Positions 7,032 to 57,828 are shown, numbered from the whole stretch's first letter. The stretch: 62,111 bases of DNA, filler included, from Candidatus Fermentibacterota bacterium (GCA_016928395.1; 6 parts of 6 records of this genome joined end to end with filler, not necessarily neighbours in it), one strand, 5' to 3'. The notes: generated by a model not told the origin, from the letters alone. A program made the numbers and translations.

Positions 7032-7131
7032 NNNNNNNNNNNNNNNNNNNNNNNNNNNNNNNNNNNNNNNNNNNNTTAATTAATTAANNNNNNNNNNNNN
7101 NNNNNNNNNNNNNNNNNNNNNNNNNNNNNNN
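7032..7131. other. artificial contig spacer
   Basis: N runs flanking TTAATTAATTAA, 100 nt; same at 35958-36057, 42665-42764, 50686-50785, 57729-57828. Confidence 0.97.
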
Positions 7132-35957: not shown

Positions 35958-36549
35958 NNNNNNNNNNNNNNNNNNNNNNNNNNNNNNNNNNNNNNNNNNN
36001 NTTAATTAATTAANNNNNNNNNNNNNNNNNNNNNNNNNNNNNNNNNNNNNNNNNNNNAGACACCGCTCCCGGTTCTGCTCGATGAGACCGATGGCGTCAG
36101 ATCGAATCCCGGGGTCGATGTCGTGGGTGTTCTGAGTCATGGGGCTTCCCTCAGCCTCTGTCAGATGGGGGACGAATCAGTGAGCTGTGGAGACTTCTCC
36201 AGGTTAGCTCCGAACGGGGGCGTGAGTCAAGCGCACCGTCCCTTCCCGTGCGCAGGACTGCGAACCGGGCTGGGGATCGTGGGGAGGGTTCTCCCGACAT
36301 GGGAGCCGGTCAGGAGGTGAGGCTGATGCACGGCAGGGTTCGGTCGGGCCTGAAGGCCGTCCGGCGAGGCGATCCAGTGGGATGCTTGACCCGATTAGGC
36401 TATCATGCGATACTGGTATCATGGTGTCTCTATCCTGAGATGGCTCCACAACGCGGAACCGGGCGAACCGGCAAGGCTTCGGCTGCCATTCCGGATCGAG
36501 ATTAACGAAGACATGGGGACGTGAGGGGTTGATCCTGAGGGAGGCACCC

Positions 36550-42664: not shown

Positions 42665-42764
42665 NNNNNNNNNNNNNNNNNNNNNNNNNNNNNNNNNNNN
42701 NNNNNNNNTTAATTAATTAANNNNNNNNNNNNNNNNNNNNNNNNNNNNNNNNNNNNNNNNNNNN

Positions 42765-44269
42765 ACATTGACGTGAGTCCGACGAGTCTGAGCATGACGG
42801 CGGAGGAGGGGTCGAGCACGACGGCGACATTGACGGTACAGAACGTGGGGGGTGCAACGCTGACGGTGAGTTCGATCACGGACAATCAGACCTGGCTGAG
42901 CGAGAGCCCGACGAACTTCAGTGTGAATGCGGGGTCGAGCCGTGCTGTGACAGTAACGGCGAGCGCGGCGAGCCTGACTGTGGGGACCTACACCGCGACG
43001 ATCACGATCACGAGCAATGATCCTGATGAAGCGACGAAGACGGTAGGGGTGACGTTCACGGTGACGGCAGAGCCCGAGATCTGGGTGAATGCGACGTACC
43101 TGGAGATCGAGGTGAATCAGGGGACCCAAGGAGAAGCCTGGTTCGAGGTGAAGAACGTGGGTGGCGGCACGCTGCAAGTCACGGACATGCATGATGGATC
43201 GGATGATATCTGGCAGAGCGAGCAGGCATTCAATCTCGGCCCGAATGAAAGCAAGTGGGTAGGCGTGTACTCCGGCAACTGGATGTACGGCGGGACCTAC
43301 GATTTCACCATCACCATCGACAGCAATGCCGGCAACGCAACGATTGAACTGCACGTGATCATCAATCCCGTAGGTGGGGAATGCAGTGAGTTCAACTGGA
43401 CTTCCGTCCACACTGACGGGATTGACTACTACGGAGTCTCATCAGACGGCTGGAACGGCTGGGCCGCCGGATACCGCGGTATCTCACGCACCACAAATGG
43501 ATCGTCGTGGAGTGAGCTTGGGGTCCAGGACAACTTCGCCGACATCCATGTGGTGGGATCAACAGGGTTTGCCGTGTCAGGTGGGAGCTGGGGCAAGGTA
43601 TTTCGAACCTACAACGGCAGCGATTGGGATCAGGTCTACGCTGCTGAAGGCGCAGGATGTGCCGGCGTCTTCTACGATGGCGGTTCGACCGTGTGGGTCG
43701 CGGCCGGCGGCGGGAAGGTCTTGAAGAGCACTAACACTGGCGGCAATTGGGATGCCATTCAGGTCGGATCCTCCAACGTGCAGTTGCTCTCGGTGTTCTC
43801 TGAGGGGAACGGGGTCGTCTGGGCATGCGGCACTAGCGGCTCGTCGTGTCTCTACAAGTCCACCAACTGGGGCAACTCCGGTTCGTGGTCTCAGGTGAGC
43901 GTGACAAACATAGGTGGTCTCGAAGACGTATGGTTCAGCAATGGGACTGGCTGGCTCGCGGGGGCCTCAGGCATCCTCTACTCATCAAACGGCGGAGGAA
44001 GCTGGAACCAGGCGAGCGTCCCCGTTGGCGGACCATTCCGTGCCGTGCAGAGCGATGGCTGGAGCAGCACATGCGTGCACGCCGTGGGAGGAAATGACTA
44101 CTCCGGATTCATCATCAGGTCATCCGATGGTGGCGCAACGTGGGAGACCGAGTACACAACCAGCTATCGCCTGATGGAATTGGTGATGGGTGACACATGG
44201 GGCTTCGTTGTCGGGGGCAATCCCGGACCAACCGGAGGGATCTGGAAAGGGGCTGCCACCGCAAGATGA
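42765..44269 (+). CDS. surface protein with BACON/Ig-like domains and YCF48/BNR-type beta-propeller, 5' partial
   Basis: Ig-like NVGGATLTVSSITD...SNDPDE; repeated S/TxDGGxxW Asp-box motifs. Confidence 0.8.
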
Positions 44270-44447
44270 AGGAGTGAAAGAGCGCATTGGCCGCCCTGCA
44301 ATGGCTGGTCTGCGGGAGGGTGCCCCATGTGCCCTCCCTACGCCCCAGCCTGGCTCGACACTCGTGAAGCGAACCTGCGGGCCAGAGCTCCTCGATCAGT
44401 GAGGGAGTAGAGCCAATCGAGCCTGTGTCGAACGCCGGGAGGATATC

Positions 44448-44696
44448 ATGCGGACGTTTGCAGTTATTCTGACAGTCATCACCTTTGGCCTGTTGGTCTC
44501 TCGCTGCTCGAAGGAGCTGGAGGCGCCGCCGGGGGCGCCGGGGATTGAGGTGACGTCACCGAGCAGTGGGGATGTGTGGGATTCGGGGAGTTCGCATGAG
44601 ATTAGATGGACGTCTCAAGGAACCTCTGGTCATGTGAAGATCGATGTGAGCGACGACGCGGGAAGCACACGGGAGGGGGAGTTCTCCCCGGCATAG
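44448..44696 (+). pseudogene. truncated paralog of the N-terminus of the DGR target lipoprotein
   Basis: RCSKELEAPPGAPGIEVT...VWDSGSSHEI...GHVKIDVSDDAGST nearly identical to the 46654 gene, then stops. Confidence 0.85.
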
Positions 44697-44702
44697 CATG
44701 CG

Positions 44703-44743
44703 CGATTGCAGAAAGGCCCTTACTGAGGTACTTTCTGCAATCG
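44703..44743. promoter_or_regulatory. inverted repeat, probable AbiEi autoregulatory operator
   Basis: CGATTGCAGAAAG-15nt-CTTTCTGCAATCG perfect 13-bp inverted repeat just before abiEi. Confidence 0.65.
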
Positions 44744-44765
44744 GGAATGCAAAGTGGAGGATCAG

Positions 44766-45578
44766 ATGCAGCGCGAGAGATCGCCGAGCCACCAAACGCT
44801 GCGCGATTTCGTTGACGCACTCCAAGCGGAGGGTCGCTACACCTTTGATCGCGCAGAGGCGATGGCCGTTCTCAAGGTGAGTAGCCCCGTGCTCAAGAAG
44901 GCCATGACGCGCCTTGTCGCCAAGCGGCGGATAGCGGTGCCCACGCGAGGCTTCTTCGTGATTGTGCCGCTGGAGTATCGGGCAGCCGGGGCACCCCCTG
45001 CTTCGTGGTTCATCGACGATCTCATGCGCCATCTGGGCAAACCCTACTACGTTGGCGTGCTGTCAGCCGCGGGGCTTCACGGTGCGGCACACCAACAGCC
45101 GCAGGAGTTCCAGGTCGTCACTGCCGTGAGCAGGCGATCAGCGGTGGCGGGCAGATCGCGGATCAGGTTCTTCGGTAAACGCCATGTCGAACACACGCCT
45201 ACTGCGGTACTCAAGTCCGAAACGGGGACGATGCGCGTGTCCACGCCAGAAGCCACGGCGATCGACCTCCTGCGTTACCTGTCTTCAGCCGGCGGCCTTG
45301 GCAATGTGGCGACCGTGCTCGCCGAACTGGCCGAACGGATAGATCCCGCACTTCTCGCCCAGGCGGCCGCCGACGATGGCGAATTCGCCTGCGCACAACG
45401 ACTTGGCTACATCCTGGACGCTGTCGATAGCGGAGATCGGGCCGAGGAACTGGCCAAGCTCGTAGCGAACGCGGACCCTCGGAGGATTCCTCTCGTCCCG
45501 GGGCTGCCCACCAGGGGATGTCCTGTGGACCGGCGTTGGCACCTCATCCTCAACGAGCGGGTTGAAGCCGATCTGTGA
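44766..45578 (+). CDS. abiEi: type IV TA antitoxin AbiEi family
   Basis: GFFVIVPLEY, YYVGVLSAAGLHGAAHQQPQ, VSTPEATAIDL. Confidence 0.88.
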   Translation: MQRERSPSHQTLRDFVDALQAEGRYTFDRAEAMAVLKVSSPVLKKAMTRLVAKRRIAVPTRGFFVIVPLEYRAAGAPPASWFIDDLMRHLGKPYYVGVLSAAGLHGAAHQQPQEFQVVTAVSRRSAVAGRSRIRFFGKRHVEHTPTAVLKSETGTMRVSTPEATAIDLLRYLSSAGGLGNVATVLAELAERIDPALLAQAAADDGEFACAQRLGYILDAVDSGDRAEELAKLVANADPRRIPLVPGLPTRGCPVDRRWHLILNERVEADL

Positions 45579-46435
45579 TCCAGCGCGCGTTCATCACGGA
45601 GTGGAGGAGCAAGGCACCCTGGGCTCTCGACGAACAGGTGGAGCAGGATCTTGTCGTGTCCCGGGCTCTCGTGGAGCTCTACTCCGAAGAGGTGCTGCGG
45701 CGCGGGCTCGCATTCAGAGGAGGGACAGCACTGCATAAGCTGTACCTTGAGGTGCCGGCACGCTACTCGGAGGACATCGATCTCGTACAGGTGGAAGCCG
45801 GCCCCATCGGCCCCGTGGTGGATGCAATCCGGCGACGGCTCGACCCCTGGCTCGGCGTACCGCAGTGGAAGCGCGGGCATGGCCGCGTGACGCTCAACTA
45901 CCGGTTCATGACCGAACCCGAGCCGGTGCAGCAGAAACGACTCAAGGTAGAGATAAACACACGCGAGCACTTCTCGGTGCTTGGCCTCGTAGTCCGGCGT
46001 TTCGATCTTGCGAGCCGATGGTGGAGCAGGCAGGCCGAGATTACCACCTATGCGCTGGACGAGCTTCTCGGGACCAAGCTGCGTGCGCTCTACCAGCGAA
46101 AGAAATGCCGTGATCTCTTTGACTTGTGGATCGCCGCCAGCTGGTCGGATGTGGATGCGAGCAAGGTTGTGCACTGTTTCCTGCGCTATGTGGGCAATGA
46201 TGGCCTGCGCGTCTCGCGAGCCGAGTTTGAGGCCAACCTGCACAGGAAGCTCTCCGACCCCCTGTTTGGACGAGACGTGGAGCCTCTGATCTCCCTGACG
46301 ACAAAGTGGGATCAGGCTTCGGCTGCCGAGTACGTGTTGACCCATCTTGCACCGCTGTTGCCCGGGCAACCCTGGAAGGCGAACCCAAAGCCTCCGTCGG
46401 TGGTAGGGCGGAACCATGAACATATGTCGAGCTGA
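45575..46435 (+). CDS. abiEii: type IV TA nucleotidyltransferase toxin AbiEii
   Basis: AFRGGTALHK, RYSEDID, KLRALYQRKKCRDLFD. Confidence 0.92.
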   Translation: MIQRAFITEWRSKAPWALDEQVEQDLVVSRALVELYSEEVLRRGLAFRGGTALHKLYLEVPARYSEDIDLVQVEAGPIGPVVDAIRRRLDPWLGVPQWKRGHGRVTLNYRFMTEPEPVQQKRLKVEINTREHFSVLGLVVRRFDLASRWWSRQAEITTYALDELLGTKLRALYQRKKCRDLFDLWIAASWSDVDASKVVHCFLRYVGNDGLRVSRAEFEANLHRKLSDPLFGRDVEPLISLTTKWDQASAAEYVLTHLAPLLPGQPWKANPKPPSVVGRNHEHMSS

Positions 46436-46653
46436 AGGACCTTCCGGCCGTTGGGCTGCAGGGTGGGTGTCGAGGGCCTTGCCGGGTGCGTAAGGTGTCG
46501 AAGGCGTACCGGTGAAACGGATACCCTGGCGGTGCGTGGTAGTGCGCCGTTTCGGGTGCCAGTGGTGCCAGTGTGGTATCGTAATGTGGTGCGACGGTGT
46601 GGCCGACTGCCACCAGCTAGCGTCGGGCCAAGTCTGAACAACGGGAGGATGTA

Positions 46654-48606
46654 ATGAGAGCTCTTGGAATCATTGCCGCCGTCATCGCGGTTGGGCTGCT
46701 GATGTTTCGCTGCTCCAAGGAACTGGAGGCACCGCCGGGAGCGCCGGGGATTGAGGTCACAGCACCGACCAGGGGAGACGTGTGGGATTCGGGGAGTTCG
46801 CATGAGATTGTCTGGACGTCGGAAGGGACGTCGGGTCACGTGAAGATCGATGTAAGTGACGATGCGGGGAGCACATGGGAGACGTTGGTCGCTTCCACCG
46901 ACGATGATGGTGGTCATCCGTGGACGGTGCCGGACATGGCGTCTGGCCTGTGCCGGATCAGAGTAGCCGACACGGATGGGACGCCCTCAGCGTTAAGCGA
47001 TACGTTTGCGATCGCGGGGATCTCCGTGGTCACACCAGCCGCGGGAGCAGTCTGGGCGGTCGGCGCCACTGAGGAGATCCGGTGGAGTTCGTATGGAGTC
47101 TCTGACAGGGTGAATCTGGAGGTCAATCGAGGCGGCAACTGGGTTGCTGTCGCCGATTCGGTTCAGAACACCGGGTCATATTTCTGGCTGGTATCCGGCC
47201 CCGAGGCCGGCAACGGGATGATTCGCGTATCGGATGTGGACGGGAGTTTCTCGGGCATGAGTGGGGCCTTTGCGATCCGGGAGCCGTACATCACGGTGAC
47301 GGCGCCCGGAGCTGGAGATACATGGGTGGTGGGGACGAGCCGCGAGGTCATATGGACGAGCCTGGGTGCATCGGGATCAGTCGATGTAGCTGTCAGCTAT
47401 GACAACGGGGCAGGCTGGAGCACGATCGCGTCCGGAGTTGCCGACAACGGAAGCAGAGCCTGGACGGTCTCGGGCCAGGCCTCGAGCATGTGCAGGGTGC
47501 GGGTTCGCGATGCAGATGGAACTCCTGAAGGCCTCAGCGGCCTTTTCACCATCCACCTGCCCGCTCCGGACATCACGATCGCCCCAGCGAGTCTGACGCT
47601 GAGTATTTTTCAGGGGGCGAGCGTGGACACGGCGATTGTGGTGGCGAATTCCGGTGACGCGCCCTTGCAGGTCACCTCGATCACGGACAACGCCACGTGG
47701 TTGACTGCGGCACCGGCAAACTTCACTGTCGCGGTGGGATCCAACCAGAACGTGACAGTGACGGTCAACACGGCGGGTCTGGCCTACGGCCAGCACAACG
47801 CAACCATCACCATCGCCAGTAACGATCCGGAAGAGGGGCAGGTGGCCGCGCCGGTGAGCCTGACCGTTCAAGAACCTCTCCTCGACATGGTCTCCCTGTC
47901 GGGCGGAACCTTCCAGATGGGGTCGACGTCGCAGTGGGCGGACTCGGACGAGCAGCCGGTGCACACGGTGACGGTGAGTTCGTTCTACATGTCGAAGTAT
48001 GAGGTGACGCAGGCGCAATATCAGGAGGTGATGGGGACGAACCCGTCGTACTTCCAAGGTGCGAACCGGCCGGTGGAGCGGGTGACGTGGTATGATGCTG
48101 CTCGGTTCTGCAACGCGTTGAGCGTGAGCGAGGGGTTGACGCCGTGCTACAATGAGAGCAACTGGAGCTGCACCTTCTCGGCGAACGGGTATCGGTTGCC
48201 GACGGAGGCGGAGTGGGAGTATGCGTGCCGTGCGGGGACGACGACAGACTACTACAACGGGAACGAGACGCAGAGTGGCTGCAGTCCGATTGATCCGAAC
48301 CTGAATCTGATCGGGTGGTACTGCGGGAATGCCAACAACCAGACGCATGACGTGGGAGGGAAGCAGCCGAACTCGTTTGGGTTGTACGACATGAGCGGGA
48401 ACGTGTGGGAGTGGTGCAATGACTGGTATGGGAGCTACTCCTCGGGGTCGCAGACTGATCCGACGGGGCCAAGCAGCGGTTCCTACCGGGTGCTCCGCGG
48501 CGGCCGCTGGTACGACTACGCCCAGTGCTGCCGCTCGGCCAATCGGTTCTACAACTCGCCCGGCGGCAGCAGCCGCTACGACGGGTTCCGTCCCGTCCGA
48601 GATTAG
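46654..48606 (+). CDS. DGR target: lipoprotein with Ig-like stalk and C-terminal FGE-sulfatase (C-type lectin fold) domain
   Basis: lipobox-like LLMFRC, repeated Ig domains, FQMGS...EVTQ...RLPTEAEWEYACRAG...GNVWEWC...RVLRGG.W...GFRPV. Confidence 0.9.
   Translation: MRALGIIAAVIAVGLLMFRCSKELEAPPGAPGIEVTAPTRGDVWDSGSSHEIVWTSEGTSGHVKIDVSDDAGSTWETLVASTDDDGGHPWTVPDMASGLCRIRVADTDGTPSALSDTFAIAGISVVTPAAGAVWAVGATEEIRWSSYGVSDRVNLEVNRGGNWVAVADSVQNTGSYFWLVSGPEAGNGMIRVSDVDGSFSGMSGAFAIREPYITVTAPGAGDTWVVGTSREVIWTSLGASGSVDVAVSYDNGAGWSTIASGVADNGSRAWTVSGQASSMCRVRVRDADGTPEGLSGLFTIHLPAPDITIAPASLTLSIFQGASVDTAIVVANSGDAPLQVTSITDNATWLTAAPANFTVAVGSNQNVTVTVNTAGLAYGQHNATITIASNDPEEGQVAAPVSLTVQEPLLDMVSLSGGTFQMGSTSQWADSDEQPVHTVTVSSFYMSKYEVTQAQYQEVMGTNPSYFQGANRPVERVTWYDAARFCNALSVSEGLTPCYNESNWSCTFSANGYRLPTEAEWEYACRAGTTTDYYNGNETQSGCSPIDPNLNLIGWYCGNANNQTHDVGGKQPNSFGLYDMSGNVWEWCNDWYGSYSSGSQTDPTGPSSGSYRVLRGGRWYDYAQCCRSANRFYNSPGGSSRYDGFRPVRD
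48481..48606 (+). other. DGR variable region (VR) with IMH near 48583-48597
   Basis: run of NNC codons (TAC, CTC, CGC, TAC GAC TAC, TGC, TTC TAC AAC, GGC GGC AGC AGC CGC TAC GAC), as expected from AAC-rich template mutagenesis. Confidence 0.75.
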
Positions 48607-48646
48607 GTTTTGGATTTTGAAAGTTTTACCTTTTGCGGGTGCTGAG

Positions 48647-48742
48647 GCGCGAGGTCGGGATGCGAGCCGGCCTGCCTGCCCTGCCTCTGGCAGGCGGCAG
48701 GCAGGCAGCGAAGCGGCGCCGGCGGGCATCCCGACCTCGCGC
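48647..48742. other. large hairpin/cruciform downstream of the VR
   Basis: perfect 17-bp inverted repeat GCGCGAGGTCGGGATGC (48647-63) / GCATCCCGACCTCGCGC (48726-42) enclosing a CCTGCCTGCC/GGCAGGCAGG stem. Confidence 0.75.
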
Positions 48743-49268
48743 GCGGCGAAATCCCACCCGGCCTCCCGGATGGGGATGGAAGACTGGAATGATGGATGGG
48801 TGGATTGGTGGGAGAGGAGCGCAAATCCCTGCGGGAGCTTGCTCCCGCACTGTAGGAGCGTCGTCAGGCGCGAACGGCTCATCCCTTTGGGAAAGGGGGA
48901 GGGGGGGGGATTGGGCCGAAACCCTCCCAACCTCGCTTTTGCGAAAGAGAGGAGCTGTTAGAGCGTCGTCAGTCGCGACGAGGGCGAAGCCCTCTTTGGA
49001 GTGCGCAGGCTTGCCCGCGCTTTGTGTAGCGGAAGTTTGCCACAGCACCTTCTCATGCGGCGCATGAGCGGAAGTGAATGCGCAGTGTGGCGGGATTCCG
49101 CGCGAAGGTGCTGGACTGCCGCTCCCGCTGCTGAACGCGGTGGCAAGCCACCGCACTTCACACAAGGAGCGCGGTAAGGCGCGAAGATGCGGTTCGCGGT
49201 TGACACCGCTTCTAGACGCCGCTGAGGCGGCGAGGCAACCGTGAACTCGTAGCGCAACGAGGAATGCC

Positions 49269-49730
49269 ATGCCGGTACGAATCCTGACGGTGCGCTTTGA
49301 CAGGGGCCGCGAGGTTTTTGATGACAGCGAGCTCCAGGCGTTCCTGCTGAACAAGCGGGTGGGCAGGGTCGAGACGGCGTTCTTTCACGTTGATGGGTCG
49401 CCCTACTGGTCACTTTTGATCGAGTACGACGAGGTGTTGGAACGCGCTACCGCTCAGACCGACGAACTCGGGGAAGCGGAACGGTTGCTGCTTCAACGGC
49501 TCCGGGAGTGGCGAAAGGCCACGGCCGATGCCGAAGGCGTTCCCGCCTACTTCATCGCGACCAATAGCCAGCTCAAAGAAGTCGCGGTGCGCTCGCCGAT
49601 CTCCCGCGAGTCGCTGAAAGGCATACGAGGATTCGGTGCGCGGAGAATGGAACGATACGGCGACAAGATCCTCGATCTGGTGAAGGCATTCCTCGACCAG
49701 GAGCCGCAGCCAACGACCCATGCGGGATGA
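49269..49730 (+). CDS. HRDC domain protein (DGR accessory)
   Basis: LREWRKATADAEGVPAYFIATNSQL...IRGFGARRMERYG. Confidence 0.88.
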   Translation: MPVRILTVRFDRGREVFDDSELQAFLLNKRVGRVETAFFHVDGSPYWSLLIEYDEVLERATAQTDELGEAERLLLQRLREWRKATADAEGVPAYFIATNSQLKEVAVRSPISRESLKGIRGFGARRMERYGDKILDLVKAFLDQEPQPTTHAG

Positions 49731-50082
49731 CTATCCTCTCTTTGTCCACTGGTACAAGCAGTTGGACTGGATTCTGGATACGGTTGAGCGGTTTCCTCGC
49801 AGTTCTCGGTTCACCCTTGGGTCCCGGGTGGCGGATCTTGCCCTGGGGGTCTTGGAATGCATCGTGGAAGCCATCTACACGAAGGACCGAGCCGCGATCT
49901 TGCGGCGCATCAACCTGGATTTGGAGAAACTCAGGATTCTCTTCCGCATCGCGGCCGATAGGAAGTACATTTCCCTACGTCAACTCGAGTTCATCAGCCA
50001 GGGACTCGATGAAGCGGGTCGGATGACCGGCGGCTGGAGCAAACATGAGGCGATGCAACGGGCTGTTCGAGAGAGTCATTGA
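49720..50082 (+). CDS. avd: DGR accessory variability determinant, four-helix bundle
   Basis: FPRSSRFTLGSR, LEKLRILFRIA, EAGRMTGGW; directly upstream of the RT. Confidence 0.88.
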   Translation: MRDDYPLFVHWYKQLDWILDTVERFPRSSRFTLGSRVADLALGVLECIVEAIYTKDRAAILRRINLDLEKLRILFRIAADRKYISLRQLEFISQGLDEAGRMTGGWSKHEAMQRAVRESH

Positions 50083-50685
50083 CTTCGGGAGTCTCAAGGC
50101 GGCATTCCGGAGGGCCTTCCAGGGTTCGGGGCGAAGCTATGAGGCGTGCCGGTTCAACTTCCGCCTTGAGAAGGAGCTCCTGCAGCTGGGAGCAGAACTC
50201 GCGAGCGGAACGTACTATCCTGCGCCCCATCGATACTTCGCCGTGCGCGATCCCAAGGAGCGCGAGATTGCCGTGGCGCCGTTCAGGGATAGGGTCGTCC
50301 ATCACGCCGTGGTGGCGGCGATGGAACCTGTGTTTGAGCCTTCGTTCATCTACGACTCATATGCGTGTAGAGTCGGCAAGGGCACCCACGCGGCCGTTCG
50401 GCGGGCCCAGCGGTTTCTGCGATGCGCTGGCTGGTTTCTCAAGGGAGATGTCGAAAAGTTCTTCGAGAGTGTTGATCACGAGATCTTGTTAGAGTTGGTC
50501 GCACGCAAGATCAAGGATTCCCCTTTCCTTGATCTCGTCGAACGAATCGTAAGGAACACGAGGACCCAGGGGCGCGGCCTTCCTATCGGCAATCTTACCC
50601 CAAGTTCACCTCTGATTGAGCGGAAATGGGCGATTTTGAGGGGTGTGGGGCGTGGAAAGCCTTGTCCCATATTGGGGGGAAGTTC
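50045..50685 (+). CDS. DGR-type reverse transcriptase, incomplete
   Basis: DPKEREIAVAPFRDRVVHHA, DSYACRVGKGTHAA, LKGDVEKFFESVDH, GLPIGNLT; similarity lost after about 50599, contig ends at 50685. Confidence 0.9.
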
Positions 50686-50785
50686 NNNNNNNNNNNNNNN
50701 NNNNNNNNNNNNNNNNNNNNNNNNNNNNNTTAATTAATTAANNNNNNNNNNNNNNNNNNNNNNNNNNNNNNNNNNNNNNNNNNNN

Positions 50786-52382: not shown

Positions 52383-52529
52383 GAGAGGCGCTCATTTCAG
52401 GCCCTGCACCAGACCGTGGGGGCCGCACTGGGGCCCCGGGAGAAGAGTCGCACGAATTTGCCGGTAGTCATGCTCCGGCGCAAACTGGTCTCGCTTCGCG
52501 CGCAGACTCCAAGGTTCAGGGAGGGAGGG

Positions 52530-52745
52530 GATGGATGAATGGATGGATGGGAACACTGGAATGCTGGAATGCTGGAAGGAGGGGGAGGGATACTTCGCTG
52601 CGCTGGCAGGGCACAGGGGTTGGGGTTGGGGTTGGGGTTGGAATACTGGAACGATGGAATGATGAATGGATGGATGGGCCTTCTGAATTCTGAATACTGG
52701 ATTCTGAATACTGCGCAAGGCCGCCTGCCGACCGCCGACTGCGCC
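52530..52745. repeat. composite low-complexity intergenic repeat including (GGGGTT)4
   Basis: GATG/GGAATG units, GGGGTT x4 at 52616-52639; minus strand matches 7507-7572. Confidence 0.7.
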
Positions 52746-52801
52746 GGTCTGCAGGAACCTGAGTGTTGACACGTCGGCATTTTTCCAGTCATTATGACGG
52801 C

Positions 52802-57566: not shown

Positions 57567-57828
57567 ATCCGATCTCGCCTCTCCCGCTTCGCCATTCCAA
57601 ACTACAAACGCTTCCCGGTTCTATTCCTGCAGCAAAGCGACCCGCGCATCCGTTCCTCATTGGTAGCCGGGCCTCTCTCTGGTCGACTCCTGACACGAGT
57701 TGTCGCAGGGGCTGCCAGATGATCGACGNNNNNNNNNNNNNNNNNNNNNNNNNNNNNNNNNNNNNNNNNNNNTTAATTAATTAANNNNNNNNNNNNNNNN
57801 NNNNNNNNNNNNNNNNNNNNNNNNNNNN

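Follow-up and report, generated by a model that had tools for sequence, protein, structure and literature searches.

An HRDC- and Avd-bearing diversity-generating retroelement beside a surface-protein gene of a Candidatus Fermentibacterota bacterium, with an apparently interrupted reverse transcriptase gene

The 62,111-base stretch of Candidatus Fermentibacterota DNA analysed here (GCA_016928395.1; hereafter, the window) consists of six contigs of a metagenome-assembled genome (MAG), chained with five N44-TTAATTAATTAA-N44 spacers between them, and features on different contigs therefore need not be neighbours in the genome. One contig (42765-50685, 7,921 bases) carries what is, with high confidence, a diversity-generating retroelement (DGR): a target gene that ends in a variable repeat (VR), the accessory genes HRDC and Avd, and the 5' part of a reverse transcriptase (RT) gene close to the contig end at 50685. 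An earlier note on positions 46654 to 50685 had proposed a DGR with HRDC and Avd that diversifies a surface lipoprotein. The locus contains the following features, where TR stands for the template repeat of a DGR and NNC for codons ending in C:

46654..48606, + strand, DGR target of 650 aa with a signal peptide including Cys20, an Ig-like stalk and a C-terminal FGE/C-lectin-fold domain (open reading frame [ORF], Pfam)
46654..46713, + strand, signal peptide ending in LMFRC (Cys20), a possible lipoprotein signal (translation)
46765..47835, + strand, Ig-like stalk of three Kre9/KNH-like repeats and one HYDIN/DUF1573-type Ig domain (Pfam PF10342, PF22544 and PF07610)
48472..48603, + strand, VR of ~44 codons, bounds approximate (alignment with ten family TRs, NNC codons)
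48605..48639, + strand, T-rich motif of TTTTTACC-like units ending in TTTTG (nhmmer profile of 17 relatives without the window)
48647..48742, + strand, long GC-rich hairpin 3' of the VR, with arms 48647-48686 and 48703-48742 (40 nt, 80% complementary)
49269..49730, + strand, HRDC accessory of 153 aa, with a conserved N-terminal part of ~60 aa and the HRDC domain (Pfam HRDC, aa 74-138, E 4e-20)
49720..50082, + strand, Avd accessory of 120 aa (Pfam bAvd, E 5.6e-19)
50045..50599, + strand, DGR RT, N-terminal 185 codons only, to GLPIGNLT (Pfam RVT_1, alignment, tree)
50600..50685, no strand assigned, unrelated tail to the contig end, common to a higher-depth contig (Logan contigs)

ORF and Pfam matches agree on the target architecture that had been described beforehand, an Ig stalk followed by a terminal FGE-type domain. 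The FGE-sulfatase domain spans aa 411-649 (E 1.6e-55) and reaches the last residue, and modules of ~90 aa recur in the translated stalk. The closest solved structure for the C-terminal 250 aa is 2y3c, variable protein 1 (TvpA) of Treponema denticola (E 3.6e-42), and true FGE enzymes match the same query more weakly (~1e-23). Furthermore, the target lies below the NCBIfam cut-offs of GldK (113.7 vs 350 bits), PvdO (83.8 vs 500 bits) and EgtB (68.4 vs 360 bits); by these profile scores it is predicted to have the FGE/PorK-GldK fold without belonging to those families. A search with the target gave 7999 matches, of which the best 120 listed were at most 59% identical. The residue before Cys20 is an arginine (LMFRC), which is atypical for position -1 of a lipobox; a truncated paralogue of the gene start at 44448 reads LVSRC.

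The HRDC and Avd genes expected between target and RT were both recovered by Pfam matches, and Avd also exceeds the cut-off of the NCBIfam model DivGenRetAVD (NF033474; 94.6 vs 80 bits). A search of solved structures gave no Avd match, neither with Avd alone nor with a 17-sequence Avd profile. As to the RT, the motifs KEREI, FRDRVVHHA and GLPIGNLT are all found in the translation, as the earlier note had quoted them. In a tree of 19 RTs (quick IQ-TREE run, LG+G4), in which the window is represented by its N-terminal 185 residues only, the window RT falls within a clade of DGR RTs with verified TR/VR pairs (support by the SH-like approximate likelihood ratio test [SH-aLRT], 97), and group II RTs split off at 99. 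Its sister, with 61% identity across 186 columns and an SH-aLRT of 93, is the RT of L016, a locus from a Gemmatimonadota MAG. The grouping with group II intron RTs that had been named as contrary evidence did not occur in this tree.

The top NCBIfam match of the RT fragment is a group II intron model and that of the target is GldK, the abortive-infection genes AbiEi/AbiEii lie just upstream, and no TR was found in the window. These observations would suit an FGE-family or PorK/GldK-like lipoprotein gene that happens to stand beside a group II intron, retron or defence RT, the last perhaps linked to the neighbouring AbiE module, with the NNC codons reflecting codon usage. However, both top matches are far under their cut-offs (91 vs 300 bits and 114 vs 350 bits): the fragment scores 91.1 bits against the group II model TIGR04416, and true group II RTs from the relatives' genomes reach 357-362 bits. 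The closest solved RT is 8ub7 (a 328-aa 'Reverse transcriptase', E 6.3e-28), which we take to be the Bordetella phage enzyme; group II intron RTs follow at 7.8e-21 and weaker, and retron-type RTs are also behind. Avd is above its equivalog cut-off, in the tree the RT branches within verified DGR RTs, the adenine positions of the target end behave as in true VRs, and the same four-gene order occurs with TR/VR pairs in relatives (both detailed below). An origin other than a DGR is thereby largely refuted already, and we regard it as highly improbable.

In the established DGR mechanism (PMC5758913), the RT-Avd complex makes cDNA from the RNA of the TR, random bases enter opposite adenines, and this cDNA takes the place of the VR. 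Since no TR was found in the window, we aligned the window segment 48472-48603 with the TRs and VRs of ten relatives, and took the relatives' TRs as the reference. The mismatch rates were as follows:

TR against other TRs (control): 13.4% at TR adenines (444/3306), 28.7% at other bases (2338/8150)
TR against the true VRs of other loci: 59.8% at TR adenines (1965/3288), 28.7% at other bases (2333/8141)
TR against window segment 48472-48603: 68.0% at TR adenines (253/372), 31.2% at other bases (283/908)

Since these rates are like those of true VRs and unlike those of TRs, the window segment behaves as a mutagenised VR, and the C-terminal stretch of the target bears the imprint of adenine mutagenesis. 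The dominance of NNC in the last ~40 codons, pointed out earlier, is borne out: NNC accounts for 29 of the last 42 target codons and for 193 of the 608 before them (Fisher p 2e-6). The most NNC-dense 42-codon segment of the whole target gene starts at codon 607, and the NNC codons of the VR align with AAC codons of the relatives. The depletion of adenine in the VR is weak (16/126 vs 359/1824, p 0.06). The VR framework (RV.RGGSW...GFR) aligns with the VRs of the family, with one peculiarity. At the serine of GGSW the window has CGC (Arg), that is, GGRW, and the earlier note had seen in this the outcome of adenine mutagenesis. The codon is present and compatible with an A-to-C change, but it is unusual in the family, as the Ser codon of GGSW/GGSY is unchanged in the VRs of all ten relatives.

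The complete form of the cassette is found in related loci. The RT fragment retrieved four loci in genome contigs and ten in metagenome contigs, and nine of these 14 have TR/VR pairs with mismatches almost only at TR adenines. The order FGE-type target, HRDC, Avd, RT is the same as in the window in 14 related loci. Where the RT is full and sequence continues beyond it, the TR lies 37-289 nt past the end of the RT homology (11 of 11 relatives, in two of which, L024 and L025, it emerged by a relaxed search). In the complete relatives at least 75% of the TR/VR mismatches are at TR adenines, L025 being the exception (14/25). The TR of the window had been predicted downstream of the RT, together with its approximate wording. 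The position fits the 11 complete relatives and the guessed wording matches their TRs, but the TR itself was not seen here.

Relatives of the HRDC accessory protein speak to where this type of DGR resides. A search with three aligned HRDC accessory proteins (A2) revealed 20 further loci in prokaryote genome or MAG contigs, including one on a chromosome record of 7.66 Mb. Among 2.9 million viral contigs there were 43 candidate stretches, none of which was confirmed as a relative. By their MAG labels, the hosts of the HRDC lineage include Gemmatimonadota, Brocadiaceae, Desulfobacteraceae, Spirochaetia, Pseudomonadota and others. From these sequence searches the HRDC DGR family looks cellular rather than phage-borne, in line with the non-phage reading of the earlier note. 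The founding DGR is phage-borne, according to the part of the survey used here (PMC5758913), the contig measures only 7.9 kb, and an AbiE module can ride mobile elements, all of which would suit a phage or prophage element that varies a receptor-binding protein. Against this stand the lack of phage structural genes on the contig, the 20 prokaryote loci, some on long chromosomal records, compared to zero confirmed viral ones, and a target with a signal peptide and an Ig stalk, which is not the architecture of a tail fibre. We consider a phage origin very improbable.

The RT gene is incomplete as assembled. Up to residue 185 (base 50599) it is 45-56% identical to five full-length RTs of the family, and homology then ends: SQFFANVYL and YxRYMDD have no counterpart in the window RT, and the C-terminal half was found nowhere else in the 62-kb window. 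To look beyond the MAG, we used Logan contigs of the public run X1, in which 98% of the words of the stretch occur; ~56% of its records were read, and it may be the source sample of the MAG. Hardly any of the words occur in run X2. Logan contig 6 (depth 10.2) spans 49150-50628 and thus runs 29 nt beyond the break, unbranched and at the depth of the cassette itself. Logan contig 7 (1086 nt, depth 24.2, 2.4x the cassette) shares 50599-50628, covers the sequence to 50685 and continues for ~1 kb. The sequence to the right of 50599 occurs in more than one context, and nothing similar to the tail (50600-50685) is present elsewhere in the window. On the minus strand of the tail, an ATG at 50670 reads toward the junction; the short peptide that it would encode may resemble the N-termini of ATPases.

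Two readings of this junction have to be weighed. The RT may really be interrupted after codon 185 in the dominant genotype of the sample, or the same DGR may be intact and possibly active, the break and the missing TR having arisen during short-read assembly or binning (through a chimeric end, a pruned branch or a strain mixture), with the 3' half of the RT and the TR on a piece that was left out of the bin or not assembled at all. Fragmentation is common where DGR loci are assembled, and several relatives likewise break off inside the cassette (L006, L019 and L021, within the RT); the contig stops only 86 nt past the break; all other parts of the cassette are intact open frames; and the Logan contig over VR and hairpin (48401-49171) has a depth of 6.0 compared to 10.2-10.9 in its flanks, which unresolved variation could cause. 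On the other hand, two assemblers gave the same junction, contig 6 crosses it without a branch, the RT half is missing from the whole window, and the 30 nt common to contigs 6 and 7 are not RT-like, so that the join cannot be put down to a repeat within an intact RT gene. We therefore prefer a real interruption, to which we give somewhat better than even chances, over the assembly artefact, which is a serious but less probable alternative. The full statement, a chromosomal HRDC- and Avd-bearing DGR whose RT is really interrupted at this locus, is held with the same modest confidence.

Several points weigh against that statement. The pair that defines a DGR was not seen, since neither an adenine-tolerant scan nor blastn revealed a TR in the window. 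If X1 is the source sample, the two assemblies are not independent data. Logan contigs represent simplified graphs from which rare variants are dropped, and ~56% of the records were read, so that a minority of the population may carry an intact allele, or a branch may have been pruned. Finally, the T-rich motif of the window, treated below, scores low (14.3 bits) compared to the sites used for training (16 of 17 at 14.8-31.1 bits, one at 9.3 bits). The VR is covered in X1 by one Logan contig with 0 differences; as such contigs cannot show rare variants, this lack of VR variants speaks neither for nor against activity. With no TR seen, the RT incomplete as assembled and contigs devoid of VR variants, the present tense of 'diversifying' in the earlier note is unproven.

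How such a cassette would work can be outlined from its parts. Replacement of the VR would recode the ligand-binding face of the C-lectin/FGE-fold tip, which would be displayed at the cell surface on the Ig-like stalk of a secreted, possibly lipid-anchored protein. The HRDC protein may act as a helper that handles nucleic acids, and the T-rich motif may serve as an acceptor signal. Having neither the catalytic half of the RT nor a TR directly after it, the copy described here would have lost its autonomy; it would either persist as a relic whose VR is frozen or rely on an RT and a TR located elsewhere.

A T-rich motif stands directly past the VR stop in the window and in each of the 17 relatives with both an FGE-type target and HRDC. 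It comprises ~30 nt and begins at a fixed distance of 8-10 nt past the VR stop, and the interval to HRDC ranges from 100 to 2909 nt. The nhmmer profile made from the relatives has a single match in the window (E 0.0085; 319,441 bases searched on both strands), and off the training sites only two matches with E > 1 were obtained. The motif was not found after the TRs of the relatives. The ends of TR and VR differ there by a single base, CAG[C/T]AC vs CAGGAC. An IMH (initiation of mutagenic homing) site is defined relative to the IMH* of the TR, and according to the survey (PMC5758913), identity of the two means that recognition has to reach further downstream. It is conceivable, although we put the chances somewhat below even, that the T-rich element is the acceptor-site signal of this lineage, telling VR from TR where IMH and IMH* differ by one base. 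No prior description of the motif was met in full-text searches or in the available portions of PMC5758913, PMC4891356, PMC3240598 and PMC10907252, supplements aside.

The motif also occurs apart from the cassette. When prokaryote genomes were scanned for exact matches to a 21-nt version, at least 120 stretches were obtained, of which 80 were turned into loci. In 20 of the 80, the motif lies 8-10 nt past the stop of an ORF that ends in the VR framework (19 by tblastn adjacency), and most of these 20 have no RT close by; the remaining matches, mostly in AT-rich genomes, look unrelated. Within the 8-kb loci around the 80 matches, an RT is present in two and HRDC in ten, as would be seen with a motif that marks remote targets, too. 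Several genomes harbour more than one VR-type ORF end with the motif behind it (L059 and L073 on one contig, L071 and L107 on one chromosome), which suggests multi-target systems. A function of the motif as the binding site of the HRDC protein was considered and is weakened: only four of ten motif-bearing genomes have a full HRDC accessory, a count to which the incompleteness of MAGs applies, and the motif is therefore not tied to HRDC.

The hairpin noticed after the target is a strong one. The fold of 48596-48760 has a free energy of -100.6 kcal/mol (z -6.8), and none of 200 shuffles folds as well. A GC-rich hairpin within 80 nt past the T-rich motif reaches z <= -3 in 8 of 18 loci (80-nt segments, mononucleotide shuffles); the present locus has z -2.1 in the same test. 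A Logan contig with a depth of 11.5 spans the hairpin loop (48686-48688) with a 5-nt insertion. The hairpin is followed by one further feature:

48743..49268, no strand assigned, remainder of the long spacer, repeat-like sequence (direct repeats D7, inverted repeat I4, contig depth)

The whole spacer between target and HRDC measures 662 nt, compared to 100-443 nt in 15 of 17 relatives. The summed contig depth is 88 at 48983-49139 vs ~10 in the flanks. The stretch 48743-49268 is rich in GGATGG/TGGAATGA, and a similar stretch lies near 52535-52770 (within 52392-52792); both are probably elements similar to repetitive extragenic palindromes (REP) or miniature inverted-repeat transposable elements (MITE), which would account for the long spacer. 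A TR hidden in the spacer (48607-49268) was also considered, and was rejected by repeat analysis, the adenine-tolerant scan and blastn. Rfam revealed nothing credible in 48400-50685 (one chance-level match, E 0.92).

By its gene content the locus belongs to a known class, the HRDC-bearing DGRs. These form Architecture C in the survey, with 14 DGRs among 372; avd is present in roughly half of the 14, in the part of that work covered here (Wu et al. 2018, PMC5758913). The window shares with this class, and with the TvpA DGR of T. denticola as portrayed in parts of PMC4891356, a cellular setting, HRDC beside a DGR RT, and an FGE-type C-lectin target with a C-terminal VR. In contrast to the T. denticola type example, again within that partial account, the window has Avd; furthermore, the accessory gene of T. 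denticola lies between TR and RT (PMC4891356, same sections), whereas the order in 11 relatives of the window is target-HRDC-Avd-RT-TR. Compared to Architecture C in general, the present copy lacks the 3' half of the RT and the TR, and the gene order may already stand in the tables of the survey, which lie outside the portion used. The DGR of the Bordetella phage BPP-1 (mtd-avd-TR-brt) resembles the window in having RT and Avd, a C-terminal VR in a C-lectin fold and an inverted repeat past the VR. It differs in being phage-borne, in having no HRDC and in the position of the TR, between avd and brt. The acceptor signal of BPP-1 consists of a GC-rich IMH and a short cruciform; in the window, a T-rich motif stands between the VR and a much longer hairpin. 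The nearest relatives (L016, L020, L017, L018, L023, L005 and others) share the gene order, the VR framework and the T-rich motif, with RT identities of 45-61%; they are complete with TR/VR pairs and have no counterpart to the cut at RT codon 185 or, for the most part, to the long spacer.

Taken for itself, the locus adds one more cellular surface-protein DGR, incomplete and from a sediment MAG, which is useful for annotation and unsurprising. It is also an entry to a widespread target-HRDC-Avd-RT-TR lineage that is apparently little described. The lineage-wide T-rich motif is the sole lead with some novelty; with a motif by every VR and a covarying RNA by every TR (see below), target recognition and priming could become testable outside the Bordetella phage model.

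Closer inspection of the relatives revealed further details. A structured RNA common to ten of them lies directly 3' of the TR (alignment A5, with L016:7440-7620, L017:4124-4300, L018:5172-5350, L020:4290-4470, L023:2951-3130 and five more). The final bases of the TR form pairs with a GTGTCC-like stretch further downstream and thereby enclose a hairpin whose loop is conserved; further helices follow, and compensatory changes are found at 24 of 31 predicted pairs across the ten loci. The loci of nine relatives gave no Rfam match at the gathering score. The RNA may be a counterpart of the Bordetella phage spacer RNA, which primes cDNA synthesis. L022 (287-2146) is an example of an incomplete cassette: it has the target, the motif, HRDC and a TR for which 18 of 19 mismatches are at adenines, and no Avd or RT match was obtained in the 7.9-kb locus. 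This cassette is presumably served in trans or partly deleted. The RT genes of L010 (1100-1210) and L011 (980-1060) change frame at a (GA)n tract read RERERE, and that of L012 (1440-1490) does so at a G run just before GIPIGNLTSQ. Such changes come either from errors of assembly or from slipped-strand switching that turns the RT on and off.

The spacers that join the contigs of the window are the remaining feature:

7032-7131, 35958-36057, 42665-42764, 50686-50785 and 57729-57828, artificial contig spacers N44-TTAATTAATTAA-N44

The contigs other than that of the cassette carry ordinary cellular genes (radical SAM, prolyl oligopeptidase, an FG-GAP protein with a type IX secretion system tail, MFS and URO-D). 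On the cassette contig, the AbiEi/AbiEii toxin-antitoxin pair occupies 44754-46435, just upstream of the target. An ORF of 82 aa at 44448-44696 is the truncated paralogue of the target gene start mentioned above (80% identity over 246 nt, including 18 nt upstream), and the arrangement at 44430-46635 looks like an AbiE module inserted into or beside a duplicated target-gene start. At the contig start, an ORF at 42773-44269, whose 5' end may have been lost at the contig edge, encodes Ig-like HYDIN/DUF1573 domains and a repeat-rich C-terminal part, with neither an FGE domain nor a VR signature; it is a probable second surface protein beside the DGR target.

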